A program made the position numbers and the translations under genes. A stretch of DNA of 47,936 nt, filler included, from Catajapyx aquilonaris (taxonomy: Eukaryota): the NCBI GenBank assembly GCA_000934665.2. It is 2 parts of 2 records of this genome, joined end to end, with 100 filler letters (N's around TTAATTAATTAA, not from the genome) between each part and the next. Parts side by side here need not be neighbours in the genome. Positions count along the whole stretch, not along the records: positions 23,908 to 47,936 come from JYFJ02005627.1; 1 more part is not named here. One strand, 5' to 3'. The notes below the pieces were generated by a model, which did not search any database, had not been told where the DNA came from, and saw only the letters and a program-made list of their open reading frames with translations. This document shows positions 23,808-47,936 of the stretch, one piece after another (positions within the stretch are counted from its first letter, which is position 1; each line of letters opens with the position of its first letter).

Positions 23808-23907
23808 NNNNNNNNNNNNNNNNNNNNNNNNNNNNNNNNNNNNNNNNNNNNTTAATTAATTAANNNNNNNNNNNNNNNNNNNNNNNNNNNNNNNNNNNNN
23901 NNNNNNN
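23808..23907. other. Artificial assembly gap/linker
   Basis: N44 + TTAATTAATTAA (stops in all six frames) + N44 = exactly 100 nt. A second 7-N gap lies at 38615-38621. Confidence 0.95.
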
Positions 23908-25136
23908 AAAATGAATCATTAACTAATACACATGTATCTGAAACATTTCAGCTTCGGAAATCCAGATATAACATGCACTTATGCACAAAGGATTGGCATT
24001 TTTTCCAGATTTTACATTTCAGCGGGCTCAGTCAACTAGAAACCACATTATATTCAAGACTTTGCCAAAAAATGCATCATGGCTTTTTAATAAAGAGGTG
24101 ACTGTTGATTATTCTTAATATCTGTCACACTGGATGGCGAATGGTTCGATGACTGAGTTTGTTGTATTGATTCCTTTTGCCAATTTCCAAGATCTGTAAA
24201 ATCAAAAGGGTTTGAAACCATATCCTCCTGAGACCCCTAGTACACCTTTCAATCACTTTTTTTTTTACGCGTTTGAGTTAGTCAGAAGGTGCTGGAAAAA
24301 ACAAAGGTACAGTATACTGTACCAGGGGTCTCAGGAGGATAAGATGTTTTTTTTTTTTTTTCCCAAGAACTCTGACTGGAAGAGGATACAACCACGGTGA
24401 AATAAATCCAGGGTTGTAAGCCCTGATTGGCCAATTTGTAGTTCCGAAATTGGAAAATTTGCGAATTTCAAGGCCAAATATCTCAAAAGGGAGGGGGGGG
24501 GGGGACCTGCAAAAAATGTGTTGGCCATGGGTACTAGTACTTACAAGGGAAGACCGTGACGTGTCACTAACGGATTTGGACAAAAATCGCTCAGTGGGTA
24601 AATCACATGCGTAGAATATATTCACTGGTGAATGTAAAAACCCACACTTCGCAGCCATTTTCGAGATATGAGTGACGTCAGATCCGGCGCGCTCAATATA
24701 GTGCATCCTCTTGCTCCCTTTTTAGACTTTTTATCATCATCGAAAAAAGTCTCATAGAACGGCTCTGTCTGTCCGTCTGTTGACAGGTATCAGGCCCTCA
24801 ACCGCAACAGATACTGAGCGGCAAACTGTTTTCGGATTCGGATTAAACGTGACCTAAATAGGTGACCGATTTTCCGGGTTCAGAAGAGTTTTAATCGCAT
24901 AGCTTCGTCCACTTCCGATCACACCACAGATGATGACACGGAACAGGATGAGGAATATGTGAGCAACGACGAACATGATCCTAAGTACAACAAAGTGCAG
25001 AAACCACAGAAGAAACGAAGTGTTACTTTACATCCAAGGCAGCACTAACATATACAACCGAGTCGTATCACCACCACTTCCATATTTTAATCAACAATCA
25101 GGTTAGTTATACAGGACTTGTGACTGAATTAATGTA

Positions 25137-25223
25137 CAGTCCCACTCATAAAGAATGGTACTACTCGGCTACTCGCCAGCATATTCAAAGGGGAAATCGT
25201 ACCATTCTCTATGAACGGTACTG
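25137..25223. mobile_element. 87-bp Tc1/mariner-type mini-MITE
   Basis: TA-CAGTCCCACTCATAAAGAATGGTAC ... GTACCATTCTCTATGAACGGTACTG-TA. Confidence 0.65.
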
Positions 25224-25599
25224 TAAAAGCGTACTTGTGATACAATGGCAATGATGATGTAAACCATTCTGCAGGTAGTAGCAGTGACCATCAGAGCCAC
25301 AACCTGAGTGTGCAAATTGGGGACTCCGCCTCATCTTCCACCCCCATTGGTGACAGGTCTGAACACAGATGTCCACTATCAGATACTGATGGCAATGATG
25401 AAGATGCCAAAGTGTCAGAGGTCACTCTCAAAGAAATTGGGGTAGCCAACATAGTTGAAAAGCTGCTAGTTCATGCAGAGAAGAGGCGTGATGCAGGAAC
25501 AACACAATGGGGATCCCCAAGCACATCCGTTTCGCTGGAAGGTGAGTGGATCGTTAACTTGTGACAACTGCAGACCTGCTGGATATGCATGCATCACCA

Positions 25600-26000
25600 C
25601 AGCCACTCCTGGAACTTCCACTAGACATGGTGACACAGTTCCCGTTGGACTACCTCCAATCTTTTGTTGAGAGGACCGCCAGCTTATACGGAAAGCAGAT
25701 GTAGGTATATAAGATGCATAATTTGATTCATATAGCAGAAGATGCAAGAACGTTCGGTTCATTAGATGATTTTAGTTCTTTCCCATTTGAAACCTTTCTC
25801 CATCGAATAAAACGGAACATTAAGAGCTCCCCATCACACATTAGAGCAATTAGTAAAGCGCATACAATCATGAGCAGAACCAAGCTGGGATGTCTACTCA
25901 TACTTATTCAGAGCATCATGTTCGTAATGATGCAAATACTTGATTGTACATATACCAGATGAACAATTTCACAATTAAAAGCAAGGCAGTCCGTGATAGA
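25600..26000 (+). pseudogene. CACTA/EnSpm transposase fragment (internally deleted)
   Basis: PLLELPLDMVTQFPLDYL followed closely by LYGKQM*VYKMHNLIHIAEDARTFGSLDDFSSFPFETFLHRIKR, two motifs typical of animal CACTA transposases. Confidence 0.75.
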
Positions 26001-26023
26001 TTTTGTGCATTGACAAATGGTAC

Positions 26024-26432
26024 GAACCTAGAAAATCGTGCAAGGCGGAACAACAACATCCTTTATGAGTTTATGGAGAACCGGAAGATGCGGAGGAGAG
26101 GTGGGCCGATTCAGAAGCTCATTTCGTAAAAATAGTGCGAAAATATGGATTCCATCCGGTAAAGTTGAGTTCGAAATGGTCCATCCACTGTGGGGGCTAG
26201 GAGAGGGATGCGTGCCATTATTGCGGCCTGCCTCCGTTTTAAAGACAAAGATAAAATCCTGTTCAAAGCCAGCAACTTGCGGATGACCCCTTTCAGCTTA
26301 TCAGAGAACAACGCAACGGTAACGCGTGAGAAGAGACTCCGTCTCATACCGTTTATGAAGAGTGCCAAGGAACGGAACGACCGCGCCAAACTCAAACTGG
26401 ACAAGTTGCTGACATTCAATAATATTGTGTTA
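26024..26432 (+). pseudogene. Non-LTR retrotransposon ORF1 (CR1/L2/L1-type RRM) fragment
   Basis: NLENRARRNNNILY ... RAIIAACLRFKDKDKILFKASNLR...SEN...REKRLRLIPFMKSAKERNDRAKLKLDKL matches the 'LENRSRRNN...RPIIVKF...SED...KL' pattern of LINE ORF1p; frameshifted. Confidence 0.65.
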
Positions 26433-26443
26433 TCGGCCAACCC

Positions 26444-28345
26444 GTGCTGATGAGAATGAAGGTGTCCTTGGACACGCCACTGCCCAAGAGTTGGCCCAAC
26501 TTCCTTAGAGATGATGCCAACAAAACAGCCATGTTCGAAATTATAGCAAAGTGTATAATCCACCAGTTCCCAGGTAACACAAGACATCCCAGGGACGTCC
26601 CACTTTTGTCCCATTCATCCCAGAAACATCCCGGACATTTGGGTCCAAAATAGGATGTCCCAGGGATGTGAACTGTTGGACTTATCACGGCCCTCACTGT
26701 CAGGAGCTTCCAAGGATATGGGCAGGACGTTACTGTTTTTTTAGTTCACTAGAGGGGATTCCCCACTGATGGAATTATGCGCGAGGATTGGCCCCATCTA
26801 GAGCATGGAGAGTTCTCCATGCGCTGATGGGGAAGGCGGGGGAAGGCGGGGGAGCGAAGAGGTATTGCGCAAGCGGCGGTTTAAAAGTGCAGTCGTCATT
26901 TCGAAGCCTGCAAGATATGGCGTAGTGGCTGGAAGCATCTCGTGCTCGTCGGAGTCGTCCTGCCTCTTATTCCTATAAGCAAATCCATTGACTGGAATAA
27001 TCAGCCGCCACTGCCTTAACAAAAAAAGGTAAGATACATACAACCGGCGGACAAGCATATAAACTGACCAATGTGGTTTTGTAGCAACATGTTCGTATGC
27101 CATTTTCAGATGCAGTCAAGATGCATGCAACTAGAATTGGGATAAACGTGACAGACAAAGACATTGAAGTAGCAATGGCAGGGTGGCTACGCCATGCGAA
27201 GGAGAGACGAACGAAAGACTCATCATCACCTGCAATCTAATTGCAACAGACTTTATATTAGTGGATGACAAAGTGATGTTCCTTCCAGCACTTATTATGC
27301 CGATGTATGAATAACTTATAATCATATCAATGTAATGAGAAAAGTAATAAACAGAATCTAAATTGACCAGCAGAGATATAATTATATTACATCTGGATTT
27401 TTGACGGGGGGTGGAATGGAAAGGGGGAGACGTGAAGTGGGGAGGGGGGGGGGGATTATAGGGCGAGGAGGGATATGCATGAGATGTCCCTGGTACATCC
27501 CAGGAGGGTCCTGCGTTTTGGGACGTCCTGTGCACATCCTTGGGAGCAATTTGTGTTAGCTGGGTTGTGGGAGGGTGTCGATGTATTCACTACTCTTGAC
27601 ACACAAGTCATGACAACTAGTTCACGCCTTGATCTTCAAACCCTGAGTTATTGCAATCACGAAGAGGCAGACACACGCCTTATGCTGCATGTTGCAGACT
27701 CTGTGGCACATGGATGCAAGAAAGTTACGATCAGGGTAGTTGACACAGATGTTCTTGTCATCGCTGTTGCCTGCATGCAACAAATGGTTGGGATAGAGAT
27801 GTGGGTCCACCTCGGAACCAAGAACATTCAATCTCAGCTCTCTGCGGTCGCGGGAAGAAGTCGGCATTTGAAGCATGGACCTCATCCCCCGACGCCACGA
27901 ATGGATTCCTGTCCTTATATCAGCAGGAGATTATGACAGTGTCAAGGAAGATATTGAAAAATTCGTGGTGTCAATGTACGACAGGACCACACAACTCACA
28001 TCAGCGAATGAGTGCCCACAGGCACTTTCCACGAAAAATTATAGAGAACTGAGCAACATTCCGCCAACAAGCGATGCTCTGAAACTTCATGCCCTAAGAG
28101 CCGCATATCAAGGTGGACCAGTCTGGGGCCAAGCCCTGCGTGCTGAACAAGAACTCCCAGACCCATCTACTTGGGGTTGGCATCGCCCAGGTGTCGGGGA
28201 CAGGTGGAGTCCAGTGTGGACTATCACACCTCCTGCACCTGAATCCTGCCTGGAGTTAATCAAGTGTGGGATGCAACAGAGCCAGATGCAGGTGCATAAA
28301 ACAGAATATGCCTTGCACTCACCTGTGCCAGTGCAGTGTGATGGA
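26444..28345 (+). pseudogene. Academ (AcademX) transposon C-terminal region: XPG-like nuclease plus Cys-rich finger, interrupted by an EnSpm insertion
   Basis: PKSWPNFLRDDANKT...CNHEEADTRLMLHVAD..KVTIRVVDTDVLVIA...IPPTSDALKLHALRAAYQ...PDPSTWGW..WSPVWT...LIKCG..CRCIKQNMPCTHLCQC; several frameshifts. Confidence 0.75.
26569..27564 (+). mobile_element. Non-autonomous EnSpm/CACTA element (~1 kb) nested in Academ
   Basis: TIRs CCCAGGTAACACAA / TTGTGTTAGCTGGG (13 of 14 complementary), 2-bp TSD TT, subterminal GGACGTCC/GGATGTCC repeats. Internal DAVKMHA..TDKDIEVAMAGWLRHAKER resembles the DUF4806-type accessory ORF end. Removing it restores the Academ frame (IIHQ-L-WEGVDVF). Confidence 0.8.
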
Positions 28346-29235
28346 TGTGAATGGGCATCGTAGCAGCCATAAACATTGTACACCTTGTAACAGCAGGGCT
28401 AAGGGGATTTCCTTCAAAAAGCATAAATTCATAATTACTTTACATTCTTTCTTGCGATCGCTGTCGAAGAGAAATTTCACTCACGTGTGGAATATGTATC
28501 ATGTATAGGTCAGGTTCCATTCATGCTTCCCATATGACCAATAAATCACGGGGTCAAATGTGAAGATCTACTCCCTTCTGTTACCTTCTTTTACCATTCG
28601 CAAGCCATGAAATTCCAGGAAACAAAGTCCACGTGCAAAAATAATAATTTCATGTAAATTGTCCGTGAAGGGTAGGCAACCACTACATCATTGGGTCCCA
28701 TTGCATCACGGTCGTTGCCTATGACGTCTGATGTCATGTCCAGTGTATTTCCACCAAAAATCCGCGACTAAAATGGCTTAAGTGTTGTATTACCGGCCTA
28801 AAAACCATGCGTGAGACTGCTTACTTTTAATTTGCCCAGGCTGGGCAGTTCAGCACAGAACAGATGCAGAGGCCAATCTGGTTAGGTCCTCGCCATCTGA
28901 CCCTTCTTCTTCTTTGGCTTCATCCTCTGGTAGCCAGCCTCTCTTGCATATGAATTTGTCTATTATTCGAAGCTGGCCTGCCACGGTTCTTCAGAAACAT
29001 ACGAGTAGGGTGCGTCCCTACCCTTTTTGAGCCATCTTGAATTGAGCGGAGGTCAGTCGGGTCCGGTTTGCCCAAAAATCCGGACTTGTACAACGGCAGC
29101 TCCAATGCATTTACTGAGATAACTAGACTAATGAGAGTAGTAATAACTGATTCACAGCCTCATTAATGCAGCCACTAATGCAGGATCCACCTGGCGGCCA
29201 CCTTCTGCAGACAATTCACGGACGAAACCTGGCAA

Positions 29236-32228
29236 TTATCGAGAAGCAGATCTCAGGCTCACCACTAATACTACAGTAGATGCAGCACACCAACGCCTAA
29301 TAAGGCAAGAGGTTAAGCATTGGCAGGGTGTGTTGGAGCGGCTCATGGCTATAACGATTTTCTTATCCGAGCACAACTTGGCATTTAGGGGGCATACTGA
29401 GAAATTTTTCGGACAGAACAATGGGAATATTTCCTGGGTTTAGTAGAACTCTTGGGGAGGTTTGACGATGTTATGAGGGAGCACCTCCGACGCATTTCTG
29501 CCGGTGAAGCGTCTGATCATTATTGCAGCAAGACAATCCAGAATGAGTTGATAAATCTGTTGGCCAGCGAAGTTTTAAAACATATTCTCTCTAGAGCAAA
29601 GCTGGCCAGATATTTCTCAGTCATTCTGGATTGCACCCCTGATGTGAGCCGATCTGAAAAGATGTCTTTCATAATTCGATTCGTGGACATACACGGAGGC
29701 TCTGCTAGTGTGAAAGAACATTTTATTGGTTTTAAAGAGGCATGCAGTTCCACAGGTGAAGGCCTTACTGAACTAATTTTAGAAACTTTGTGTCAGCACC
29801 AACTAAAGTTAGAAGATGTCAGGGATAAGACAACGGTGCCAACAAGGTGGGGAAGTATAAAGGCGTTAGCACCAGACTGTTGGTATTAAATTCTAGAGCC
29901 GCATTTGTGCCATGTGGATGCCATTCACTTAATCTAGTAATTTCCGATGCTGCCTCCACAACGGCAGATGGAATGACACTGTTTGGGGTTCTCCATCGCA
30001 TATACATACTCTTTGCCGCCTCTGTCCAACTTTGGCAAATCATGCAGAAGCATATCCCTGTTCTAACAGTCAAACCGCTAAGTGAAACAAGGTGGGAGAG
30101 CCGCGTTAGCAGTGTGAAGGCAAAGATTATGTATGATGCTCTCTGTGAAATCTCAGAATCGACTTCAGATGTAGGGTTGAAGCACGAAGCTCATTGTCTA
30201 GCTGAGAAGCTGTTAGATTTTAAGTTTTTGGTCTCACTTTGTACCTGGTATGATATCTTGAGTAACATAAATGTTGTGAGCAAAGCTATGCAGAACCAGG
30301 ATATGAATTTGGTTACTGCGTGTTAATTGATGGAAGGGTGTCTGGCCTATTTGTCTACTTATAGAGAAGAAGGATTCAATGAGGCTGTCAAAAAAAGCAA
30401 AAGAAATGGGCGAAACTTTAGATGCTGAAGTTGAATTTGTAGAGGCAGTGCGGAGAAGGAAGAAGAAGAAGATATTTGATTATGAAGGGGAGGACGAGGG
30501 AATGAACGAGACACCAGAGGAGCGCTTCAAGAGGATTTTTTTTTTAAATGTAACAATTGATAGAGTGTTGATGTCTGTACAAGAGCGGTTGAAGCAGTTT
30601 ACACAGCATCAAAGTTTGTGGGGGTTTTCTCTATGATTTGGAAATACTCCCTACAGACCTATCCTCCCACTGCAAAGACCTCCACAATGCCCTGATGGAG
30701 GGTGATAATGCTGATTTGAATGGGTCTGAGCTGAATGATGAACTCAGAAGCTTAAATTTTATACTACCAAAAGGGCACGGGACCCCAATTAAGGCTCTGA
30801 ATTTCATAATTCAGAACCAGCTGCAGGGAACATTTCCACATGTGTGGGTCGCATTGAGGATTTTGCTCACAATTCCAGTTACTGTGGCCAGTGCTGAAAG
30901 GAGCTTTTCTAAATTGAAGCTGATAAAAACATATCTGAGATCGACAATGGCAGATGAGCGTTTATCTTCGCTGGATAAGCTTTCTATCGAAAATGGTATC
31001 GCCCATGAGTTGGACATGTCGAATCTAATCCACACCTTTGCAGAGGCAAAGGCTCGAAAGGCACCCTTTGTTTGAGTAAGTGTGGAGGTGAAAAGCAAAA
31101 GGCAGCTGGTAAGTCCGTCATAAAAAATTATACAGGAGCGAAGAAAAACGTGCCATCTGGAAACGCTTCCAAGCTGTAACTACTTGATAGTGGGATTGAA
31201 GAGATGATTTTTTTTTCTCTACATTTTTAAATATCAGATTTGAAAATCATGGGTTGGTAGTTCATCCGCAAATCGGGGAGTAGGTTCGGATCTAGCTGCT
31301 TTTGCTTGTCACCTAGTGGAAGTGACTGGTTTTGCTTGTGGAAAACTGTAGTAATAACGATTAAAATCCCAAAACAGTGTCGTAACAATAAAAAAGTGAA
31401 TTAGATAGTGGGACTACCGCTACTCATGTAGATGTTTCATGGAAGCACAATAATAAACATACTTCTGATACAGGTTCAAGGATTGAAAAAATTTATTGCC
31501 TCTACACCTATCACCGTAATGTAATTCATTGGACCTAGCTGCTTTTGCATACACAATAAGGACTTCATGGCTTGGATGTAGCTTACTTTGCATAGCACAT
31601 ATACTTTTGCAGCCGCTTTACAGCTGGATCTGCTTGGATATGCTGCACCATTTTTGAGTACCAGGTAGAGGACAACATGGGGAAGCCGATGGCACTTCCA
31701 ACTCATTTTTTCCCACGGTCGGATCTAACTGCCTTTGCTTTTAACCTCTACAAGTTATCTAAATATGTATTTATTATATGATTTCAAATGTTTTGAAATG
31801 AGTTGTAATGGTTTGATTTGTGTGTATTTGTTAATAATTTTTGTTTCCTTGTAAAACCATTTTATGTCACTTTGCCATATATTTTCATGTCTTCCATCAA
31901 TCCTTTACTACGTTTTCTTACGTACGTTTTCTTAGGTTAGTGTGTAATATGAAAATGTAAGAACTTCTTTCCAACAAAATACCATTACATGAAACTGCAG
32001 GACAAGTAATTATAATGGCAGTCGTCATTATTTTGTCAAGTGCAAGGTACTACATCAAAGTGGATGAACTTCTGTTTTTGTAATGTTGTTAAATTTCAGT
32101 GAGGTAATGTAATATGTATGACAAGATGAAGATCAATAAAACGCAATAAGTTCCAAAAGTAATTACTGTAAAAAGTCAGTTTTTAATGGGGGGGGAGGGG
32201 GGCGCCATATTACCTAAGTCCGCCCCTG
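29236..32228 (+). mobile_element. hAT transposon (ZMYM1-like DUF4371 + hAT dimerisation domain), pseudogenised transposase 29236-31075, right TIR present
   Basis: HNLAFRGH..NNGN, HYCSKTIQNELI, YFSVILDCTPDVS, VPCGCHSLNL, SETRWESR, VTVASAERSFSKLKLIKTYLRSTM; at least three frameshifts/stops; ends ...CCTAAGTCCGCCCCTG (hAT-type CAGGGGCGGA terminus) at 32228. Left end not found. Confidence 0.9.
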
Positions 32229-32876
32229 GCCAACCCCATTGTTGCTGCTGTGCTTCCTGAAAACCTGTCGAGCAAACTAACGCGATCTTTAGCTACCATT
32301 CCTTCACCATTCTCTCCTCTTCCTGCTTGGCGTAGCTTTGCTGCTGCCTGCCTGACGGAGGGTCATCTTCTTCCTTACGGAGAGCCAGCACCGACCCTTC
32401 AGCGTTGGCAAGATAGACAAAGACAAGCAGGGCGGAACATTTGACTCAGAATGTGTAGTACGATTATTTCAGAAGACAGTCTGCTTGTAAACATGTGTTG
32501 GTTATTACGAATTTTTCAGTATGGGCTACTATACAACGAATGCGAAAGTTAGTTCTCCGATTGAGTATGGCTCATGAGTTAATTAAGGAATGGGCGGCAA
32601 AAGGCATATCTACACAATTTTTTATTGTAGGCTAACTTACAACAAACAGAAAATCGTGCCAATGAGTATGTCTAATAATATATTGTAGGTTGATTCACTT
32701 GTCAGACTCCGAATGACGCACACCTGTTTCCTTTTCCTCATACGTGCCCTTGTGTCTCTTTTTCCGCTTCAGTGAGTCAAAAGAACTGTCTTGTTAGTTG
32801 GGAAACTAATAATTCTTCCTTCCCATCAAAATCACCTATGAATTATTTATACCTCTTATTTATTTTTCTGAAATAT

Positions 32877-32937
32877 CATCATCTTCACGACCTAATTATC
32901 ATCTTCACGACCTAATTATCATCTTCTCCACCTAATT
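32877..32937. repeat. 20-bp tandem repeat, ~3 copies
   Basis: ATCATCTTCACGACCTAATT repeated. Confidence 0.8.
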
Positions 32938-33699
32938 TATCGAACATAATTATTTTTCTTTAAGGCAAAAAAAACATTCCTCTTTCTCTTCCTCTCCTTT
33001 GCAGCTTCAGGGAAGTCAAAACCGATATTAGTGCAAATGACAAAGTCGCCAATTTCATCTTGGCCAGTTATTTTCACCGTCTCATCTAATTTGTGATTTG
33101 CTTGTAACTTACAAAGCGATAATGCACGGTTTTTGTTCCCGGTAAGATCACTTACTTTTTCGTATCGAAACACAATAATTATCATCAAATTTTTCCGCTG
33201 CTTCCATTTGAGTACCCCTTCTTCAGGCCTCGCGTTAAAAATACTAACACGAGTAATTTCAGCTGATATGCAGCACCACGGAGGTTTCTCTTCCATGCTC
33301 TCAGTTGGCATGAAAAAGTGAGGGAAAGTAAGTTGTTATGGTCGGTCGGCATGGAACAACTGTAATCCAGGGCTAATGTCTCATCTCTTTCTGCATGTAT
33401 ATTCCAAGCAGATAATTATCGCGTGCAAATATGCATAATAAGGTATAACTTATACAAATAATTAAAAAATATACAGTGACAGTACTGGAAAAATATGTTT
33501 CGGCATATTGCATTATTGTGAACACATGACTTCATGTTGCGTTGACATATTGAAACATTTCCTGAGACATGTAGGAACCATTTGAAATACAAGGCACTTT
33601 AAATATACCATGAGCATTATGCGGTATACATTTTTACACACATACCTGGTTTGCCCCCTTTTTGCCACATCATTCAGCCTGGGTAGACATACTTCTAAA

Positions 33700-33744
33700 G
33701 CAGCCCTGATGAAGGGTTAATTCCCTGAAACTCGGGTAGGCTGC
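33700..33744 (+). ncRNA. Minimal type I hammerhead ribozyme (Penelope-like element type)
   Basis: Stem I GCAGCC(33700-05)/GGCTGC(33739-44); core CTGATGA (33706-12); stem II AGGG-ttaatt-CCCT; GAAA (33727-30); stem III C-tcgg-G; cleavage triplet GTA (33736-38). Confidence 0.85.
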
Positions 33745-34870
33745 AATCTTGATCAAGTTGCAGTTTTAACAACTTTGCTTTGTCATTTACCAGTCTGATT
33801 TAACTTTTAAATTCAATTAAATACAACTTTGATAATGTAAATTCAGTTAACTTCAATCTAAAGCCTGTGCCATACTTCCTTTTCTTTCTGGTTCAAGTTA
33901 TACATACTGAAATGTAACAAGGGCAAATTCTGTTTGTAAGTGAAATATGGCAATACAATCATATTGATTAACATCATACCGTTTACGAAACGTTATTATG
34001 TGACCTAGCTTCCAGTGTTACTTATCTCAACTCATGGGCAGCCACAGCTTCACAAGTGGAACAACGGAAGAGCAAGGATTACCGATGTAAGGTCTGTAAA
34101 CTTGACACCGTGTTACCCCAGGAAAGTTGGGGGGCCAACCCATGTAGATTTTGAGGCACCTAAGAAAATGGAAGAATGATTCATTCAGCAAATTGCTTGT
34201 ATATGCTCTTGAACCTAAAACCAACCACAATCTGAGGCGACGTGGTCACCCATCAGCGAATCAAGTCTGGAGCTGCCGCAGCTGTCGGACCAGTTCCTGG
34301 CTGAGTACGGGATTGGGGAGGGGGTCAGTCCAGCTGTCCCGGCCATTACCCGGGCGCGGAATACGATTCCCAATCCGGTGGCCTCGACGACATCAGGACG
34401 AGGCCACGCTGTCCTCTCACAGAGGAAAAATGATGTCGGACAAGTTCCCGACGGAGCTTGGGGCGATGGAGGAGGTCAGTCCAGCTGTCCCGGCCATTAC
34501 CGTGGCACGGAACCGTATCAACTCCCCCGTGGCCCCGGCTTCATCCGGTTGCGACAGCGTCAAGGGGCCCATTCGTCGCCGAAAGAGGATTCCGGGCCAT
34601 AGTGAACATCCATGTGGCACTCGCCGACAGCCAGGTCCGCGGGGAGCATGGCGGGTCAGAGAAGGCAAGCCGGTGACCCCGACCCACCACACGCCATAAT
34701 GTGTCAAGGGGATCCCTTATTTTAATTATTTTAATTATTTTATTTATGATTTATTTTTATCTTGTTTTGTTTTTCTCTCTCTCCCCTCTCTTTCGTACAA
34801 TGAATTGTTCCAGTGTTGAGCATAAATTTTGATTGTAGAAATTCTGGCGTTGCCAAAATTTCTTTCTGAT

Positions 34871-35320
34871 TGTCACGAAAGGGGCCATGATAGAATACAG
34901 TAACTTAACATCCACATGCGCGCCATCTTTTTAAACTCTTACAGTGTCGATCAAGGGCGGGCGAAGGTCACCTTTTTTACCATAAATTTTACATGTAGAT
35001 CGATGTATCGGCCATCTTCTTTTCTTTGGTGACTAATCAATCGTTGCATCACTTGTCGAGTTTTTCTTATTGTGAAGGACAAATCCTCACTATAAAAGCC
35101 GTCTTTCGGGTCCCAAAAAATCACTCTCTCCAGGACGACTCAACTAGAAGCTCCAAGCTCTGTAAGTAGCACCTAATTCTTGTACCTTTATAATTGTGTT
35201 TAAACAGGCAACCCTTGTCTGTGTGCACTGTGTACTATCAGTAATAAACCTTTTATATACTGTGAACACTTGTCTTTATCTTTTCTGGTGGCTTGGGTTA
35301 TTGGAAAACTTTAACGTCAA
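34871..35320 (+). mobile_element. Possible solo LTR
   Basis: Begins TGTCACG, has TATAAAAG at 35091 and AATAAA at ~35243, ends near CGTCA; no matching TSD found; abuts the 5'-truncated pogo ORF. Confidence 0.35.
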
Positions 35321-35344
35321 CTGTCTTGGGTTAATCACGTTTAG

Positions 35345-37128: not shown

Positions 37129-37543
37129 AATATATGCATTTTTTGTTGGGCACCATACAAAAAATGCAAATATTTTATTTTATGTTGTATGTTCTTGAAG
37201 TTGTAGTTGTTTGTAGTCACTGTGCTGGAAAATAAATTGTTCAAAGGAAGCATCAGATTGTTCCAAGGTACATCACCATATTGTACCATGGAACATTTGC
37301 AACACTCTCACATATTAATTATTTTTAGTAAAGTTATTAGTGATATACAAAATGAGTAAGTTCCATTGTGTGGGCAATAATATGCTTTATACATGGACAC
37401 TTTCATATGTTGAAAACATGACCAACTTTACTAAATAAAAATAAATGTTTAAAAAGTGTTCTATGGTACAGCCCTCTCCCCTACTCGTATATTCAACTTG
37501 TATGATTGCGCTTCCAAGAGAATGAATGTGTGTCTGTATCACG

Positions 37544-38010
37544 TCACAGTTTACAATCAGGCCATTTCGAATGTAAGCGAGGACTTGACCAGCAATGTAG
37601 TACGGTACTCCATGCATACGGTTTTTCATGGGTCACGTGCGGCCAGTAGCCACTAGCCCGAGCAGCAGATGTGTTTTTTCTCGGGGATACGCAAAACAAT
37701 CTGAGGATTTCGTCTCTTAAAGCCTTCCAGTCCCTGCAAGACCACTGCACTGGCAGGAAAGTCGTGTGATATTCCATTCCGTTCAGCATACTGATATGCT
37801 ATGCTGCTATAGGACCATGAAGAACATCGAAACCTATGAGATCATCCAATTGCAGGCGGAAGTCTCCAGTGTATAATATTCTTTTCCCATTACATGTTTC
37901 AAACAAGAACATTACAGAACCTGGGCAGTGGTCAATTGGTAGCAATGTCACCCAGAAAGGCTTGATGTAAAAACCTCGAGTCCATTAAAAGGACCTTCCT
38001 GCTGCGGAGT
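37544..38010 (-). pseudogene. Degraded Artemis/SNM1 (DCLRE1-family) metallo-beta-lactamase/beta-CASP nuclease fragment
   Basis: Minus frame 37963-37802 (missed by the ORF track): [49 protein letters not shown]. After a TAG (37801-37799) the same frame continues HISMLNGMEYHTTF. Compare Artemis [27 protein letters not shown]10-LH...YLDTTF. Confidence 0.75.
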
Positions 38011-38104
38011 AAACACAGGCCTACGGAAAGAAGCAACCGAGACAATAATGGCACAAGACAGTACTGCAGGTATGTAGTGTTGTATTAGGCCTAAAGACCA
38101 TCGA

Positions 38105-38305
38105 CTATAATTTTATCTGTTTCTTCAAGGAGCTCCTTGTGTGCTCTTCGTATGTGTCTTTAAATGTCACCCTACATCCTTGCTGACCACAAATAAATTG
38201 TCTTTGAGAACAATTTTGTACGGCATGGATGTGTCTTAGGTGGGTTGCTAATGCCGAGACTTTTCCGGGCAAGCTTCTGTTACAGACAAAACAAGTTAAT
38301 GCCAT
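38105..38305 (-). pseudogene. N-terminal C2H2 zinc-finger ORF fragment of the type seen in animal CACTA-like elements
   Basis: MALTCFVC...LATHLRHIH...FICGQQGCRVTF. Confidence 0.45.
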
Positions 38306-38349
38306 AATTATTATAATATGGAGAGAAATGACAATAATTCATTCATAAC

Positions 38350-38770
38350 TTGAATATTGAAGTCAATGCCCATAATATGTTGTTGTTGGCAGTGATTCTG
38401 GGCAGCACTTATCAAGGATCTGACTTTTATGGGCCTTTTCTGGGATCCCAACAGTGTGAATCTATATTCCGAGCTATGAGAAGCATGACGAGCATTTTCT
38501 CTACAGTAGTAAATTTTGGCATCCTCGGGCTTCTTCAGAGACTTCATCGCCTGGACGTGCAGATGGAGATTGCTATTTATGATGAAACAAGCTTGTTATG
38601 CCATCTAAAAAAAANNNNNNNGGGGGGGGGGGGACAGTAAGATCAGGAGGGCCTGCTCCGCAGGGAAAGCGAGTACGCATGAAGTCTTGACAGAGTACCA
38701 CAAAATATTTGAATGCATCCAAGTTGCTCAAGCAGAAGCCAACAAGCTCTTAAATAGTGTAGGGCTTCCA
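38350..38770 (+). pseudogene. Transposase-like fragment (P-element-related; family uncertain)
   Basis: FLGSQQCESIFRAMRSMTSIFSTVVNFGILGLLQRLHRL, then IFECIQVAQAEANKLL; spans a 7-N gap. Confidence 0.45.
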
Positions 38771-39364
38771 GAATACAACAATTGTGTACCTATGCTAAAA
38801 ACACGAACACTGCCTAAGAACCGAGCTAAGAACACGAAAGGTGATGCACATAGCGACTTCCTCGGTGACTTCATGTGCCCTAGTGACGAGGAAATTGATG
38901 CGTGGAATGAAGACTGGAATGTTTCTGAACTAGAGTTGAGCGAACCAGAAGGATTGCAGCAAGACCTGCTCCGCATGAAGGGAAGTCTCGAGGAAAGTCT
39001 GGAGCGAAACAGTGACTCAATCGACACAATAGATATGGGCATGAATAATACGTCAGTGACTCCACCAAATCAAGGGAAGAGTTCGGGAAGGAGGCATAAA
39101 AAACCAAAATTGGCCAAGAACGTGGGGTCATTTCCTACATATTCACCTACGGAATGTGATCCAGACTCAACAGAATGTGACTTGCCATCACACTATGTGG
39201 AGTATACAGATGGTCCGCAATCAGACCGTCCTGGTGGAATATGAGAAATATAGAAGTCTATAATAATCAGTCACTTATGGTAAAATTATCATCAGTAAGA
39301 TCCGGTAAGATGAATGTTCATTTCAATGGTACAGGATCAATCAGAGGATCAGAAATGGGGAAGG

Positions 39365-39470
39365 AGGATCAGTAGGGGGATCCGAGGATTGGTAGGGGAT
39401 CCGAGGATTGGTAGGGGATCCGAGGAGGATTAGAGGATCAGTGGAAGGATCACTGATCCTCGAGGATCTA
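39365..39470. repeat. 20-bp tandem repeat (GGATCCGAGGATTGGTAGGG), ~3 copies plus degenerate copies
   Basis: Directly visible; resembles transposon subterminal repeats. Confidence 0.8.
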
Positions 39471-39489
39471 GTACAAAAATCTTCGAATG

Positions 39490-40985
39490 TCGGACCCCTC
39501 GAGTAACTGGCTGAGTCACGTGCGTGAATTTTTGAATGAAAATGTAGATGAGTTGTCAGATGTGTCGTGGTCAGCATTCCACGCTAGCCGGAGCAGCGGG
39601 TCACCTGCATTAGCCGCCATCAACGCGCTCCTTCCCCTATTCCATGAAAAGTCGAGCTCTGTAGCAATGTTGCGGCATGGCATGAACGTTCTACGGGACA
39701 TAACTAAGTACCTGAACGGGTTATAAACGCCCGTCATGTGCGTCGATAAACTCATATACGCTATTTGCAAAAGAAAATCAAGTGGACCTGGTCCAGTGCA
39801 TATAGGGAGGATGAATTTGTGATCATTCTAGGACCTCTCCATATTGAAATGTGGTACCTATACCCCGCTATACGTATTCTGGGCCAGTTCATGCAAGGTT
39901 CAGGCTGGGGTGCAATTGCGTCCCAATCTGGCATCACGACGAGTGGCTGTGCGGATGCCTTGATGAAAGTAAGTCACCTAGTATGTCCTTCACTTCATTG
40001 TTAGTTGTATTCTGTTCTTTTCAATCTTATCGAGCTATCATGAATGGTATAACGCAGGTTACTCATGTCAAGAGAGCGAGGGAAGTCCACCAGGTGACTA
40101 CAGCTGTACTGCACTCTCTCCTCCTAGAAGCATAATTATGAAACCCTCGGTGATAAGACACTTCAGGGGTGGATCGAAGAGATGTCAAAATCATCACCCA
40201 CTTTTTATTACTGGCTCTTACTTTTGAATCTTGAGATTCTCTTGCTGTATTTTGTGCGCGCCGTAAGGCAAGGCAAATATACTATATAGGTATAATGAAG
40301 CGCTCAAGCGCATGGCACCATGGTATTTCTTGTACGATCATCCACACTACGCTCGGTGGCTTTCTGTTCACATCCAGGACATGGAGGAACTGCCGACTCA
40401 AGCTCCTGACGTTCACAAGGAATTCCTGGCAGGTAAGTGTCTCATTTACCTATCGCAAGCGTTCATAGTGTGATACATATGAGCCCATCACAAATGGTGA
40501 ACGAGCTGAAAGAGGAGCTTCGCAAAGCGGCAGCTGGCCGGACTGCCCTGCAGAACAAGAATGATAAGTTGAAGGAAAAAATTGAGCGGAAGGGTCGGCA
40601 GTTCGAGAAGATCTACGAGCTGAGGTAAGTTGTCAAATAGGGCATTATGGAAAGCCAGCTGTTCTTTCCTGAGCTATTGAATGGCATTACTTAATTGATT
40701 AATTGATATTCAACGTAGAGCTTCCACAGGCATGCTCCCGACTAATTGGGATGACTATCTGCGCAATGACTCGAACAAGGAAGAATTGTTCCACTACCTT
40801 GCTGGTGTAGTGCTCGATGGCTTGAAGGATGTGCACGTAGTGACAAATATTGGTACAGAAATCAGACATGGACCGTCGAAGTTGGGTGGTATTTCGTCGG
40901 CTCAAATGGAAAAGGCTGACGGAAGAATGATGCTGCACGTGAAAGACATGGTTGAGCACGGATCAGAGCGTGTTCTCATTCGTAG
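39490..40985 (+). pseudogene. Second, distinct Academ element: transposase domain and start of XPG-like domain, with apparent introns
   Basis: VSWSAFHAS..LLPLFHEKSSSVAMLRHGM..FVIILGPLHIEM..GSGW..ALMK|VTHVKRAREVHQVT..SPTFYYW..YDHPHYARWLSVHIQDM..EFLAG; later PTNWDDYLRNDSNKEELF..EKADGRMMLHV. Confidence 0.75.
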
Positions 40986-41563
40986 GTTAGTATATATGTG
41001 TGTATGCTGATAACTGGGGCTCACAAACAGGTATTTCTTAATTTTTGTGATGCATGGCAATTTCATTTATTCCAGGTATGACCTATCTAAGGCGTTATCA
41101 GTGGTGGAGTTCCCAGAGTCGAGTTAGAAGCAGTGCCCTCAAAGGGGATGGCATCATGTCATTCAAGTGATGATGGAGCAGCAGTGACCTGCTGGCGGCC
41201 GCCACCACATGAGAATGCGACAAAAATGGCAGCCAACAAAGAGGACCCTGATGTGTCCACTTGGGAACTCTTTCAAGGTGTTTCATTCCACTGGTGAATA
41301 TCAGTAGATATTTTCAAGTAGTCTTTTCATGTAGGAAATTGCATAACTGTCCGTAAGAGGACATGTTAATCTTGGATGTTGAATCTATGTGCTGCTGCTC
41401 CTTATAATTAAATTTCATTAAATTTTCAAGTTGTCTCATCACTGCACGACAAAAAGCCACTGGCAGAAGATCAAAGTGATATTGCTACAAACAATGACAA
41501 TCACCAGGCAGACCTGCAGGTGAAGATTCATCTAATTTTTGGTAAGTAATGGCTATTATTTGA

Positions 41564-41626
41564 TTCCACCTCAGCATACATCATTTCCACCTCAGCATAC
41601 ATCATTTCCACCTCAGCATACATCAT
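41564..41626. repeat. 21-bp tandem repeat, 3 copies
   Basis: TTCCACCTCAGCATACATCAT repeated. Confidence 0.85.
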
Positions 41627-42233
41627 TAGCTGGAAGTACATTTTCTCTTCATAAAATTGAATCACGTATGACGTAAGCTCAGTGACATTGCGATCTATTC
41701 AGCACGTATTAAATTTTATTAGTTTTACATTTTGTGGAAGACAATTATAATAAATATTGGCCTGTTGTGACAGAACAATAGTGCGCAGTTCAATTTGTTC
41801 AATTTTGTTAGGTAACATAAATCCCTATAGTCATGGAGCGCATCACAAAATGTGTACTATTTGCCTTTAAACTGAAGACATCCCATATATATACTGTATT
41901 TATGTACTGTATTTATGTATTATATATATTATACTGTATTTATGTATTTTATTATACTAGCAGCGGTGCCCGTTCTTCGCACGGGGAAAATAAGAGCGTG
42001 AAGATTTACACCGAGATCACCGAGAAGCAATATTATACGCAAAACTGCTCATTCCCTTGCGTAATAAAGAGCCAAGCAACTATGGTTATGTGGTTATCAG
42101 AATACAAAAAGGTGGGACAGATGGAGAGAGAAACGAGGAGGAAAAAGAAGAGAGCCAGGTCCCCTGAACCCTGAAAACAAGCAATTGGAACACTGACTAC
42201 GACGTTTGACTATTTTTATATATTTCTATAGGG

Positions 42234-42760
42234 TTGTCACTTACGAAAAGGGAATTATTCGAAATCATGAGGCAGGCACCCAGCAACGCCAATCAGCGTG
42301 CATTTTTTGAAGGGAAAGTGATGCAGTTGGTAGACCCTGATCCGGAAGCTGAAGGTTATGACTCCATGATTAAAACAATTAAGGTAGAACTCTCTAGATT
42401 TTGCAGCAAGTTTCAACAGAAATGGCAATCTTCTGTTAGGAATGCAAGCTATTTTGTGGAAAAATATGGAACAAGGCTAGAGGGGGAAGTCACATTTACG
42501 GACAAAGCGCAGAAGTCGGGCCATGCTACGCAAGAGGCTGGACGTGGTCGTCCCAGCAGAGACTTTGCAGAGAGTAGTAACCGATCAACTCAACAGATCA
42601 ACAGAAGAACTCCGCAGAACTACAACCACCCCGGAAGTGACTTACGCTGCACAAATGAAGCTGCGTCAAGCAGGAAACGAAGATTCCGCTAAATTAGTAA
42701 AAGAAGCAACAATAACTACTCCGTCAAGGGCCAAAAAGATTCGTCTGGCATACCGGAGAA
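42234..42760 (+). pseudogene. Transib transposase N-terminal fragment
   Basis: GRGRPSRDFAESSNRS / TEELR..EVTYAAQMKLRQAGNEDSAKLVKEAT.TTPSRAKKIR (one frameshift), typical of the region preceding the Transib/RAG1-like core. Confidence 0.7.
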
Positions 42761-42789
42761 GCTTGGGGAGCATGCTTCTGTCTTCGTGC

Positions 42790-43005
42790 CAGCAGACAGT
42801 TCAAATTGAGGCAGAGGACAAGTTGACCGGCAACCTGGCAGACAGACAGAGGGGTACTGGAGCAAGCACCTGAACAGACTGTGAGAGGATATCTCGCGAA
42901 CAGCTGGCCTCGAGACAATTTTGACACTATGTGTTGGATGCAGTGTCATGCTGCGTCGAAACATCGACTTACACGAGGGTTTGGTGAACGGCTCCATGGG
43001 CACTA
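42790..43005 (+). pseudogene. Helitron PIF1-type helicase fragment
   Basis: RTAGLETILTLCVGCSVMLRRNIDLHEGLVNGSMG (PIF1 'VML.RN....GLVNG' motif). A Helitron-like end ACTAGCAGCGGTGCCCGTTCTTCGCACGGG lies at ~41955-41985. Confidence 0.7.
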
Positions 43006-44732
43006 ATACCTTGCCCAAAATCATCTATGTATTTAATTTCGTAAAATGCGTAAGTAAGACCTCTGGGTTACATTAACCGTTATGGTGTAGCTCTTACGTG
43101 GTATCCGTCAACTAGCTCTTACTCTTCTTTTTTTTGTTTTAAATTCCGTAGGAAGTGTTTTTGGGATAATACATACTTGAACTAAAAAGTCTGTGTATAT
43201 ATACACACTTAACCTTAGTAAGTAACATACTGGTATGCAATTTCAGGAGATGGAATCAACAAGCAGCCATTTTGTGGATAACAAACACTTAAGGAAGCTT
43301 TTGGCATTGGCACACAAACATCGGCAACCTGTAGCCACAAATTTGTCGTCTTACCTAGCATCTCACGAAGGGGTAAGTAATGTGTCCAACTGTGCATGTA
43401 ATGTACTGTAATTATGTCAAATAATGTGATGCAAGTGTAATATGACTGTACCATAATATCACTATACATGTAAGGTACTAAGGTCTATGCTGTTGGTATA
43501 TGTATACAGAATTGTGTTTCACAATATGTATAGAGGTCCAATTATTTACCTGATTATTATTTCAGCTCAAAATAGACTGTGAGGTCCGATTTGGCAGGTC
43601 AATGTCACAGATGGCGACAGACATGAAAAAAATTCAAGAGGCCTATGCGTTGACCATGAAAGTGCCTGGAAGACCATTGAGGACCACCTCCGTGCTCCCA
43701 ATGGCATACACAATTTCGTTAATGAGGTGAGTGTTTTGAGATCGTGAGTTACTAACTTCTGGAAACACTTGGATAATGTAAACAATACCTAATTATCATC
43801 CTTTTTGGCAATCTAGGCAACCTCCTGCACCCCATGACAAATGCACATACTGTATCTCAAATGATTATTCCATTGTATTATGTATTCCGTCTTATAGTGC
43901 ATCATACCTGCATGCGTTTATCATTCCATGAGCAATTGGAAGTCTCCATAGAATTTGGAAAGTGCAATTAGAGTGTGCTACAAGATTAGGCCTATATAAG
44001 TGTCTAATTGTATATCTCTATATGTATGTTAGGTGGATTTATCTCCTGACACCCCACGACCACCTGGGCCATGCCTCTACAGGGGGAAAACGTCACGGGG
44101 AGGATAAATTCAAACTGAGATAGGGCTTTCCATGCAATGTCATGCACTTAACGTAATTATTTTCACACACTTATAAGTGAGCTAAAAATGTGAGAATTGG
44201 CAGACCTGTAACCCAGACATCCAAGACAACGTCAAATGTCCAGAATCACACATTTTCGCCCTGGGGCCGGCCCACGGGCGAAAGTTCTTAGGCAAGGCAA
44301 AAAGGGCATAATTCCCTTCTTGGCCAACCGAATGACACAACAGCGTCGCGAAGGCAATCACCTACGTATGCCCAGACCAGGTAGAAGCTGCTGAAGTGTT
44401 CCGGTTAGTGAATGACTTCTTTGACATCTTCAATGCCCGTTGCCATACTGGAAGCCAAAATCAACTCGCGAGTGGATCTGGGTCGTCAAATTTGCGTGCC
44501 CAGTTGAAGGTTATGTGCAACTTCAAAAGGTTTCGCGCAACAATGCGCTGCAAGGGGAAGACAAGTCTACTGCCCTTCCAGAAAGGATTCCTAATGAATA
44601 TTCGTGCACTGAAAGGACTGTATTCCTTTTTCACCAGCAATGGCGGGAGGTATATCTTAACCTCCCACTTAAACCAAGACATTCTTGAGAACCTGTTTTC
44701 TCTGATTAGGGGCCTTGGACATTTCTATGACC

Positions 44733-46597
44733 TGTGATAGGAGAAAAAGGAGATACTGGGTGGATGCATAGTAAGCAGAGAGTCACCGCCACGAGGTCTA
44801 TGATGCAGGCAACACTCACAAGATGAGAACATGAGGTTCCCAGGAGATAGAGCAAGTGACATAATTATGAGCCCAAGTCATGAGGGGCACAAGTCATGAT
44901 GAGAACTATGAACATATAGCAATCAGACAAGATGACAGAATTTGGAAAAGGTAAACGCGAAGATGGCCTCTTTAGATAAGAAAGATAGGGACCTGTTGCA
45001 TTTAGTAGAGGACCAGGCAACCATTCTCAACACGGTTGATGGCCATGTGGAGAGAAATGAAAGACTGTTGGGTAAATTGGCTAACATCACTGGGGAATTA
45101 AGTACGGCTGTAGCATCTCTGTCAACCGAATTGGTAGAGCAGGTTGGAAATTTGGGAGAGAGAATTTACATTATGGCCATGATAGAAACATATCTGAGGG
45201 TGATGGAGCTGACCCTGACACAATGTCAAGTCGAAGTCTCTTTGCTGGCTGACTCATTGGACGTGACCTCTCAGGGACGTTTAAGTCCGTACATTTTGGG
45301 TCCATCTGACTTGTTCTTGACTTTACAACGAATTTCTTTGAAGCTGCCAACTCATTTAAATTTTATTGTCACCTTACGGGAAGACTCCATTTTTTCTTAC
45401 TACAAGTGGGCTAAAGTCCACACAGCTGCAACCCCCACTTCCACCCGCCTTTTCATTGAAATCCCACTCAGAGACTCGAACCAGTATTTTCTTGTATACA
45501 ATGTAATCCCTTGGCCTACCCTGATCAATGCTACTGATACAGCCCTCGTTATCCAACCCGACTCCCCCTACCTTGCTGTGACGGAGGACCAGCAGTCCTT
45601 TGTGGAACTTACCATCCAAGATCTACCCAGATGCTTGCAAGGTCCTATCAGTGTGTGTTTCCCCAGTCAACATATTTCCACTCCCCCGTCTACCTCCTGC
45701 CTATACCAATCCTTCGTGCAACTGCCAGCCCGCCATCGCGTCTGCCACGAGAGGGCGAGACCGAGGAAATGAAGGTTGCCATGTGATGGTCCAGCGCTTA
45801 TGCTGCAGCTGGGGAGGTGGCGTGCAGAAAGGATGAGTGGCAGCCACCGGAGCAGCCGAAGATGACGCCAGGTGGAACTTTAGGGGCACCTTGCTGCTAC
45901 AGCGACGGCGTCCCGTGTTCGAGGGACACCGTGCGCTTGTCCTAAGGAAAGGCGTATGTGATAGGAGAAAAAGGAAATACTGGGTGGATGCATAGTAAGC
46001 ATAGAGTCACCGCCACGAGGTCTATGATGCAGGCAACACTCACAAGATGAGAACATGAGGTTCCCAGGAGATAGAGCAAGTGACATAATTATGAGCCCAA
46101 GTCATGAGGGGCACAAGTCATGGTGAGAACTATGAACATATAGCAATCAGACAAGATGACAGAATTTGGAAAAACAAAGGGAAGGGCAGTCAGGACGGAG
46201 AGAGGACCGTGGGCAGTCGATCCAGGCTGACCGGGACGTTCGAGAATTGGACAGCGATTGACCCGCAGGAGGTCAACGAGGACCCAGCAGAGGACCAACT
46301 AGGCATCCGGAGCAACACAGTGAGTAGAGGGAGCATACAGCAGAGAACCGGGGATATACAGTGTACCTACCAGGAACCGTAGTGTAGCGTAGCCCACTTG
46401 TGAATAAATCTGTGCCGCAAATGAAGTAATATGTAAAAGCAGTCCAAGCCAAGTTGATTCCCCTACCCAGGAGTGCCCCTAACCCACGGCCGCTTGAACC
46501 CTTCTCGGGTCCGGCACCTTACCTCGCTTCCCAAGTGCACCCAACCAGTCCCTCTCCCCTCCTTACCCACTCCTACCCCACACAACCTCCCGTTACA
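44733..46597 (+). mobile_element. Internally deleted Gypsy/errantivirus-like LTR retroelement retaining only env
   Basis: Partial 5' LTR 44733-44949 nearly identical to 45957-46173; full 3' LTR 45957-46597 (TG...CA, AATAAA 46403); purine tract AAGGAAAGG before it; 4-bp TSD GACC/CACC (1 mismatch). Confidence 0.85.
44942..45772 (+). pseudogene. Envelope glycoprotein fragment (baculovirus F / errantivirus env-like)
   Basis: 276 stop-free codons: heptad-rich region then GRLSPYILGPSDL...SYYK...IEIPL...YNVIPWP...YLAV...C...C...SCL; lacks signal peptide and TM anchor. Confidence 0.7.
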
Positions 46598-47828
46598 CAC
46601 CACCCATTACCAAGTGAGGTGAAGAATATAGAATTCGGCTCCTCCTCCTTGGTGTAAACGCTCGTGACGTTCCTATGTCAAGTGCAGCCCCAGTTACCAG
46701 GGTGTATGAGAATAATAATACAAAGTTCATGACAGCGGATCTGTTCACCGGCATATGGGACATGGGACGACATAGTATCACATTCCACTTCTGAGGTGGA
46801 GCAGAGGGAAGTCACAGCCAGTGGTACGGCCAGCAGCTCTACAACCTTTCCAGAGGAAGCAATCAACACCTCCAGCAATGTCGATTGTCCCGCGGAAGCT
46901 TTCAAGTATCTGGCGGGATATATTGCTTACAAGTGTCGAGATGTTGACCGAACAATTGCAACCCCAACAGGGGAATTGACACTTGCAGCAGGAGATGTAG
47001 GCCTGTCTTGGATCAGGGTCCTGTCTAGGGGAGGTTTGTTGGAGCCTACTGAAGAATTGTTAGACACAATTAAATTATTGGAGGTGTCTTTTGCAGCATA
47101 CCATGGATCACATATTTGCAAGGACCGAAAAGTGATTCAGAAACTCAAATTTGGGAAAAGTTTCCCAATGTGAATGAGAGAGTGATTCATCATTTTGTCC
47201 GGGTCCGAACCTTCATAAGATTACGTTTTTTAAACGAAACATTTCTGGAAGAGAGGGCAACACGTGCAGCAGCTAGGGAAAATAAGAAGTGGTAGAAATC
47301 TGCCGTTTAATTTTTTATCGCGGATTTTGCAGACATTGCCACGTACATAATAATAATAATAATCATCATCATCATCATTAGATCCTGTGTGTTACGTTGT
47401 GGTACATGCAAGGGTACATGTCTTCATATACGTGCAAAGTGTGTGGTGGTGTGAATTGTGTTACAATCTTTGCGTATGTTTGTCGGTGGTTCAATGTCAG
47501 TGTTCAGTGTGCCAATTTGTGTCATTCGGTTAGCCTAGAAGGGAATTGTGCCCTTTTTCCCTTGCCTAAGAACTTTCGCCCGTGGGCCGGCCCCATGGCG
47601 AAAATGTGTGATTCGGGACATTTGACGTTGTCTTGGATGTCTGGGTTACAGGTCTGCCAATTCTCAAATTTTTAGCTCACTTAGAAGTGTGTGAAAATAA
47701 TTACGTCAAGGGCATGACATTGCATGGAAAGCCCTATCCCAGTTTGAATTTATCCTCCCCGTAACGTCACGCCGTGATTAAGGGAACATTGGACTAATAT
47801 ATTCGTTCTTGTGCGTAGTGAAACCATC

Positions 47829-47936
47829 ATGAGCTATTCACTGCCACCCCCGCAACCACTCGATTTTTCGATGAGCCCAGCTGACGCGTGGACGACGTGG
47901 AAACAAAAGCTACAGATCTATCTACGTGCCACAGCC
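47829..47936 (+). CDS. Start of a Ty3/Gypsy gag ORF (runs off the window)
   Basis: MSYSLPPPQPLDFSMSPADAWTTWKQKLQIYLRATA matches the PPxxLDF..W..WK..F..YL.A gag N-terminus; only 36 codons visible. Confidence 0.6.
   Translation, partial: MSYSLPPPQPLDFSMSPADAWTTWKQKLQIYLRATA

Follow-up and report, generated by a model that had tools for sequence, protein, structure and literature searches.

The window analysed here, a stretch of 47,936 nucleotides of the genome of Catajapyx aquilonaris, holds at positions 23908–47936 one entire contig, G000:C3334 (24029 bp, both ends being contig ends; C3334 in the following), from an assembly of 285.6 Mb in 20583 contigs. C3334 is a dense array of defective transposable element (TE) fragments and contains no intact host gene; what survives in it are transposons of at least nine groups, nearly all of which read on the plus strand. 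This strand bias is real and strongly non-random, and C3334 is not a singular locus, being one member of a genome-wide class that spans dozens of contigs. From the analysis as a whole we lean towards regarding C3334 as a fragment of a uni-strand source system of PIWI-interacting RNAs (piRNAs) that would be built mainly of DNA transposons, and as one of many such fragments. At present, the contig bears a strong genomic signature and is a candidate piRNA source.

Transposon remnants of C3334 share one coding strand

The open reading frames (ORFs) of C3334 with a length of at least 50 aa were scanned against Pfam on both strands (101 on plus, 119 on minus), and 44 TE ORFs taken from other contigs served as tblastn queries. 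On the plus strand, clear TE-family matches were obtained in 5 of the 101 ORFs, namely DUF4371 and Dimer_Tnp_hAT (both of one hAT element), DDE_1 (pogo), Pif1_2B and the Baculo_F domain of an envelope (env) protein, accompanied by weak matches to DUF4218 (E 0.013), TCR (E 0.047) and TNP RNaseH_C (E 0.025). None of the 119 minus-strand ORFs matched a TE family; six weak non-TE matches were present in five of these ORFs, including a C2H2 zinc finger (E 0.05). The tblastn matches covered 3002 bp of the contig on plus versus 197 bp on minus. About 66% of C3334 could be assigned to TE pieces, and its 220 ORFs gave no host-gene Pfam match, host genes being represented by fragments only.

When the TE pieces with a supported strand are counted, 13 lie on plus and 1 on minus (n = 14; p = 0.002). 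Adding three pieces recognised by eye gives 16 to 1, and including two non-TE minus pieces gives 13 of 16 on plus (p = 0.02); both p-values are post hoc, since the window was chosen for its bias. Ten of the 13 counted plus pieces are of the DNA type, and the plus strand contains about 12.1 kb of DNA transposon versus 3.6 kb of retroelement. A preliminary description of this DNA had proposed a near-uniform plus orientation and a content of mostly DNA transposons, unlike flamenco with its dominance of long terminal repeat (LTR) elements, and both proposals hold, the ratio being 13:1 and not 50:50. The description's list of 14 plus-strand items had the direction right and was incomplete, as the LTR element end at 34232–35353 and the CACTA part at 43169–44085 had been missed; its separate env piece does read on plus, but is part of an LTR element nested in a P element. 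The whole contig and its plus-strand or unoriented TE pieces are listed below; MITE stands for miniature inverted-repeat transposable element, LINE for long interspersed nuclear element and TIR for terminal inverted repeat.

23908–47936, TE coding strand plus, putative precursor strand minus: whole C3334, nested TE mosaic (Pfam, homology, tblastn)
24539–24864, no strand: end of a high-copy non-coding repeat, MITE-like; outside the strand count
25660–25959, plus: CACTA/EnSpm transposase fragment (DUF4218 E 0.013; tblastn E 3e-12 to an ORF of C7386; homology chain to PF02992)
26022–26450, plus: LINE ORF1-like fragment (E 3e-11 to a 255-aa ORF in C8342)
26451–28781, plus: Academ-type transposase remnant 1 with right end (88–94% to a longer element in C8011/C4874)
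26569–27564, plus by eye only: nested non-autonomous CACTA-type element, 996 nt, with a TT target-site duplication
29147–31075, plus: hAT transposase remnant, frameshifted (DUF4371 E 2e-6; Dimer_Tnp_hAT E 6e-13)
33700–33745, plus: minimal type I hammerhead-like motif (core pattern match 33706–33738); not counted
34232–35353, plus: 3′ end of an LTR retroelement, TG...CA LTR at 34871–35353 (93–96% to C2361/C12027)
35335–37128, plus: pogo-type transposase lacking its 5′ end and with a single in-frame stop (DDE_1 E 3e-15)
38338–39244, plus: P-like transposase C-terminal remnant (570 homologues; PF12017, the P-element HTH, in 3 of the 14 long homologues scanned)
39472–41007, plus: Academ-type remnant 2 (33–43% aa identity to the C8011 element)
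42153–42770, plus: Transib 5′ fragment (E 3e-5 to the N-terminus of a Transib in C3647)
42885–43073, plus: Pif1 helicase 2B fragment (PF21530 E 4e-7)
43169–44085, plus: CACTA-type element, 3′ part (85% to C6814 and read in the direction of the 652-aa CACTA-related ORF there)
44081–47773, plus: P element, internally deleted, with both TIRs of about 251 nt (match to PDB 6P5A, E 1e-16)
44733–46597, plus: deleted LTR element with truncated 5′ LTR, partial env and 3′ LTR (Baculo_F E 9e-18; 217-nt direct repeat)
47774–47936, plus by eye, not counted: start of a Gypsy gag-like ORF, truncated by the contig end (E 0.02 to a gag-like ORF of C2361)

Co-orientation of unrelated DNA transposons across the genome

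We searched the genome for eight TE families and compared strands within contigs. Since at most 150 best candidates were scored per family search, the pair counts represent a sample; same-class matches on the same strand within 2.5 kb were collapsed, C3334 itself was left out, and Harbinger pairs were counted among the matches listed, with 3 further matches outside. Of the 53 pairs formed by adjacent DNA-transposase remnants of different superfamilies, which cover 14 superfamily combinations, 50 were co-oriented, and taking one pair per contig left 35 of 36 contigs co-oriented. After removal of the contigs found via C3334, 47 of 50 pairs were co-oriented, a value that none of 10000 permutations reached. 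The co-orientation extends beyond 10 kb (12/13 pairs). Other mosaics are likewise one-way by Pfam, with C2361 and C2912 all on minus and C2829 all on plus. Hence, the comparison with the genome background that the preliminary description had called for revealed a strong bias, but one that C3334 shares with a genome-wide class (47/50 pairs). As a side observation, a one-way mosaic (C2912) contains a Polinton-type PolB remnant (PF03175), and the C2705 region (L092:7211-9177) harbors unassigned, possibly virus-like ORFs.

As a blind control set we used 10 contigs of 20 kb chosen by number together with C3335 and C3333. Pfam gave no TE match in 133 ORFs of 11 size-matched contigs, and tblastn found 0–605 bp of TE coding sequence per 20–24 kb in the 12 contigs versus 3199 bp in C3334.

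Nested insertions, deletions and shared blocks

The anatomy of C3334 is one of nested insertions that retain TIRs, LTRs and target-site duplications, interspersed with non-coding repeats. The initial impression of coding-only scraps fused without spacers captured the broken state of the pieces, but was overstated with respect to these termini and repeats. The 996-nt CACTA-type element within the first Academ-type remnant has an empty site in C8011/C4874 and in contigs assembled from sequencing runs (joint 26565–27564). The LTR element at 44733–46597 sits within the P transposase and is flanked by a 4-bp target-site duplication with one mismatch; the P element that carries it has many MITE relatives, and its own target-site duplication is no longer present. 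The remaining junctions without duplications look like deletions, and insertion, deletion and block duplication together explain the anatomy of the contig. Four junctions (31075, 32700, 41019 and 44733, the last in X4) are bridged by run contigs with at least 31 letters on each side, the runs stemming from one sample that is possibly the assembly's own source.

Several parts of C3334 recur elsewhere. Four pieces are common to C3139, and further ones are shared with C2361, C3677, C2829, C2912 and C4345. Two shared segments stand out:

23935–26229, plus: block shared with C11938 (94%) and C9966 (95%), these two being 94–98% alike
28781–28964, no strand: piece that directly adjoins 37482–38100 in C3139 and is swapped in order in C3334 (joint 38096 to 28804 in X1, X2 and X4)

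The first block would reflect either a segmental duplication or alleles. The second piece and 37482–38100 lie 8.5 kb apart in C3334 and have about 25 bases in common; their joined form is also found in DNA run contigs.

With respect to the individual DNA transposons, we take both Academ-type remnants to belong to this family from their motifs, their coding strand being supported by the tools. Academ elements possess DDE, XPG-like and Cys8 domains and TAG...CTA termini. The first remnant shows the weak TCR match together with XPG-like and Cys8 features and a right end in CTA, and its leading Atlas assignments TCR, XRN_N and Pox_G5 scored about 0.8 (below 0.9). A literature search did not find the paper defining Academ, and a word-index homologue search with an Academ-type piece returned two unnamed proteins. 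No termini were recognised for the hAT remnant; most of it, as well as the coding part of the pogo piece, is single-copy at the DNA level. Neither a PDB match nor a homologue by word-index search was obtained for the P-like piece. The Transib fragment itself had no PDB match, and the core of the C3647 element to which it is related matches Transib 6PQN (E 2e-82). The Pif1 fragment we infer to be of Helitron type.

Regarding the retroelements, the LINE ORF1-like fragment had no ORF1 Pfam match, and its family name is our assumption from motifs, on a coding strand that the tools support. The same assumption underlies the name gag at the contig end, where the coding strand is weakly supported (E 0.02). 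A diverged relative has kept the ORF of the LTR element at 34232–35353 with 38% identity, and in C12027 an env-like ORF lies upstream. The hammerhead-like motif, which we take to be Penelope-type, is the one match of the core pattern (CUGANGA / GAAA / UH) in C3334, a pattern also matched in 5 of 100 shuffles. Its predicted fold has two stems (z -2.0), where a three-stem core is expected, and Rfam returned no match at gathering score in this region and three chance-level matches around the motif. The stretch 33656–33847 matches a deeply covered 3-kb contig of run X5 at about 90% and is therefore part of a repeat that was not recognised at any of the examined loci. As a whole, run X5 covered 9 of 30 bins at low depth and was used neither for nor against a piRNA source.

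Pieces on the minus strand

Three pieces of C3334 read on minus:

32700–33643, minus: gene fragment from the multi-copy OTU-NACHT family of large proteins (homology; family members match NACHT and OTU)
37811–37969, minus: host Artemis gene fragment, 159 nt, mid-exon (98.7% identical to a gene in C604; flanks non-Artemis)
38109–38327, minus: CACTA transposase N-terminal zinc finger, the sole reversed TE piece (90% aa identity to a PF02992 ORF of C9863)

A zinc-finger/Artemis block had previously been regarded as the only part clearly on minus. Its strand is correct, but it consists of two unrelated things, and the accompanying caveat that minus-strand pieces may have been overlooked proved justified by the OTU-NACHT fragment (about 32700–33640), which has no TE Pfam domain. 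We considered the Artemis piece as a transposon-borne nuclease gene and rejected this, because its 159 nt come from within an exon and have non-Artemis flanks, and its source gene in C604 is an intact, intron-containing gene set among host genes. C604 in fact holds two tandem, diverged, intron-containing Artemis paralogues (24700–31600). Tandem long open frames (740–1446 aa) with OTU and NACHT domains are found in C3291 (1–20000) and C10338, one of them with a 2A-like DxExNPGP motif near its start.

A putative source of antisense piRNAs

As the anatomy shows, transposons have inserted into one another, been trimmed by deletions and partly been copied as blocks between loci. In the mechanism that we envisage beyond this, along the lines of the preliminary description, a long RNA would be transcribed from the minus strand of C3334 and processed into piRNAs that are bound by PIWI proteins and antisense to the mRNAs of transposons. 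Selection would retain insertions that yield antisense guides, and thereby set the polarity, and pieces of host genes would be tolerated in reverse orientation, in which they give non-targeting guides. There is no obvious reason why inverted-repeat DNA transposons should insert in one direction, and without such a preference the polarity would come from selection. Strand-locked DNA transposons across dozens of contigs would then show antisense-guide selection acting on cut-and-paste elements, with piRNAs predicted from the strand opposite the transposases. Should piRNAs be lacking, a different cause would have to account for unrelated DNA transposons being locked in orientation to 94%.

Seven Piwi-domain loci were sampled from 60 PF02171 matches in this genome, of which five belong to the PIWI clade and two to the AGO clade; two of the former best match Siwi/Piwi and three more group with those. 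The Argonaute family is expanded, and two types can be told apart among its PIWI-clade members; in one of these, a single exon encodes the whole Piwi domain. In Drosophila, TE strand bias alone predicted clusters that were validated by piRNAs (PMC11400887), and selection for antisense insertions has been modelled (PMC10643416).

Several observations weigh against a piRNA source. The polyadenylation-type motif AATAAA shows no depletion on the strand of the putative precursor, either in C3334 (17 TE-sense versus 14 antisense) or over eight mosaics (141 versus 124, p = 0.33). Pairs of a retroelement and a DNA transposon were co-oriented in 18 of 27 cases and retroelement pairs in 4 of 7, yet piRNAs should also target retroelements. 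By eye, minority-strand ORFs occur in C2361 (gag-like) and C2829 (Harbinger- and CACTA-like), and C3334 itself has one reversed CACTA piece. Neither a promoter nor a cluster end is present on the contig. In the flam-like clusters of Drosophila, moreover, the LTR-family bias is due to Gypsy alone (PMC10643416).

The host pieces are of limited help in this respect. Both non-TE pieces of C3334 lie opposite to the TE strand, so that with a minus-strand precursor they would give non-targeting guides, which fits selection. Their orientation is a lead only (n = 2), and also counts on the other side: both cases are common to C3139 and hence not independent, and C3139 carries on its TE strand an OTU piece that belongs to the OTU-NACHT family as well, so the rule is not general. 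The stricter statement that only host pieces are reversed was rejected on account of the reversed CACTA zinc finger and the C3139 counter-example.

A wider proposal, that this animal defends itself by distributed uni-strand piRNA loci which store DNA transposons for the most part (hAT, P, Harbinger, pogo, Mutator, piggyBac, CACTA, Academ and Transib, with two remnants per contig almost always sharing a strand), spread by polarity-preserving block duplication and filter host fragments into the non-targeting orientation, is conceivable, although we regard it as doubtful. If true, such loci would be mappable from DNA alone.

Other origins of the polarity

The most serious alternative, which we nevertheless consider unlikely, is that C3334 lies in a heterochromatic long intron or non-coding transcript that produces no piRNAs, sense insertions being purged through their splice and poly(A) signals so that antisense ones remain. 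This would bias the strands in the same direction, human repeats in transcribed regions indeed prefer the antisense strand (PMC1391917), and C3334 is too short to exclude flanking exons. Purging through poly(A) signals is, however, at odds with the symmetry of AATAAA in C3334 and the eight mosaics reported above; in addition, the inspected host genes (C604) have short introns, and the control contigs of matching size contain little TE coding sequence.

Neutral rearrangement might also generate one-way arrays, if block duplication and unequal exchange multiplied a small number of co-oriented seed mosaics and opposite copies were lost as unstable inverted repeats. The blocks common to several mosaics in the same relative orientation are what this predicts. 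Inverted-repeat loss acts between homologous copies only, however, and the pairs cover 14 superfamily combinations; the pogo coding part and most of the hAT piece are single-copy, and nested insertions are co-oriented with their targets (an LTR element in P, another abutting pogo). We therefore judge this origin improbable.

We give little credence to C3334 being cargo of a large composite mobile element, or the product of gene-fragment capture of the Helitron or Pack type, copied in one polarity. The mid-exon Artemis fragment, the Pif1 fragment and the swapped piece order relative to C3139 do show capture and shuffling. The region is not enclosed by any element ends that could be found, though, the captured host pieces are opposite to the TE pieces, and several pieces retain TIRs, LTRs and target-site duplications of their own and therefore inserted by their own transposition.

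An assembly chimera of repeats, or domesticated transposase-fusion gene arrays that inflate the genome-wide count, is very hard to credit: the assembly is fragmented (20583 contigs), but run contigs bridge four junctions, albeit from one sample that is maybe the assembly source, mis-joins would not set a strand, and when the count was restricted to the 24 contigs in which a match bears a stop, which limits fusion genes, 35 of 37 pairs were co-oriented, the pieces of C3334 being broken as well.

Comparison with known piRNA clusters

Like flamenco and the flam-like clusters of Drosophila (PMC10643416, PMC11400887), C3334 is a gene-free run of TE fragments that lie nearly all on one strand, and in both cases this is proposed to result from selection for antisense insertions. 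It differs from flamenco in its predominance of DNA transposon over retroelement, in having counterparts on dozens of contigs and in being known here from DNA alone. Nearly all TEs controlled exclusively by flam-like clusters are Gypsy (PMC10643416, PMC11400887), and the strand bias of C3334 is not carried by Gypsy, the defining trait of these clusters. By this Gypsy-based definition, C3334 is not a flam-like cluster. Flam-like clusters have a size of the order of 100 kb, and C3334, with 24029 bp and open ends, may be part of a longer array.

A resemblance also exists to the flamenco-like EVE cluster 38 of Aedes aegypti (PMC7161354) and the mosquito core uni-strand clusters (10.1101/2022.08.22.504762), which combine mixed TE classes, including Tc1 and MITEs, with almost all of them on one coding strand; several uni-strand clusters are present per genome there, and the PIWI family is expanded, as here. 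Cluster 38 comprises 143 kb with about 59% Gypsy, 17 viral insertions and demonstrated antisense RNA and piRNAs (PMC7161354), whereas C3334 is rich in DNA transposons and known from its DNA. Repeats in transcribed regions (ROAST, PMC1391917; PMC3088655) show an antisense preference relative to the host transcript, as the TE pieces of C3334 would relative to their putative precursor. The published uni-strand clusters compared here are linked to viral insertions or to retroelements of the Gypsy type, and a search of titles and abstracts with partial literature coverage found no paper on uni-strand clusters dominated by DNA transposons.

The neighbouring contig in the window

The left half of the window is a separate contig and equals C3333, just as the right half equals C3334. 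The two are joined by a linker and hence are not proven neighbours:

23808–23907, no strand: artificial contig linker, not biological (44 N, 12-base spacer, 44 N)

C3333 contains a multi-exon gene (window 1671–13646) with many Tudor domains (PF00567 in 3 of 3 ORFs scanned) and an acidic tail, which may encode a TDRD-type piRNA factor. Since the linker is artificial, we did not accept the adjacency of this Tudor-domain gene to C3334 as evidence. A TMCC-type exon (PF10267) with Gly and His runs at 22850–23806 is truncated by the contig end, and long MITE-like inverted repeats are located at 2605–3481, 5197–5325, 19175–19508 and 21646–21747.

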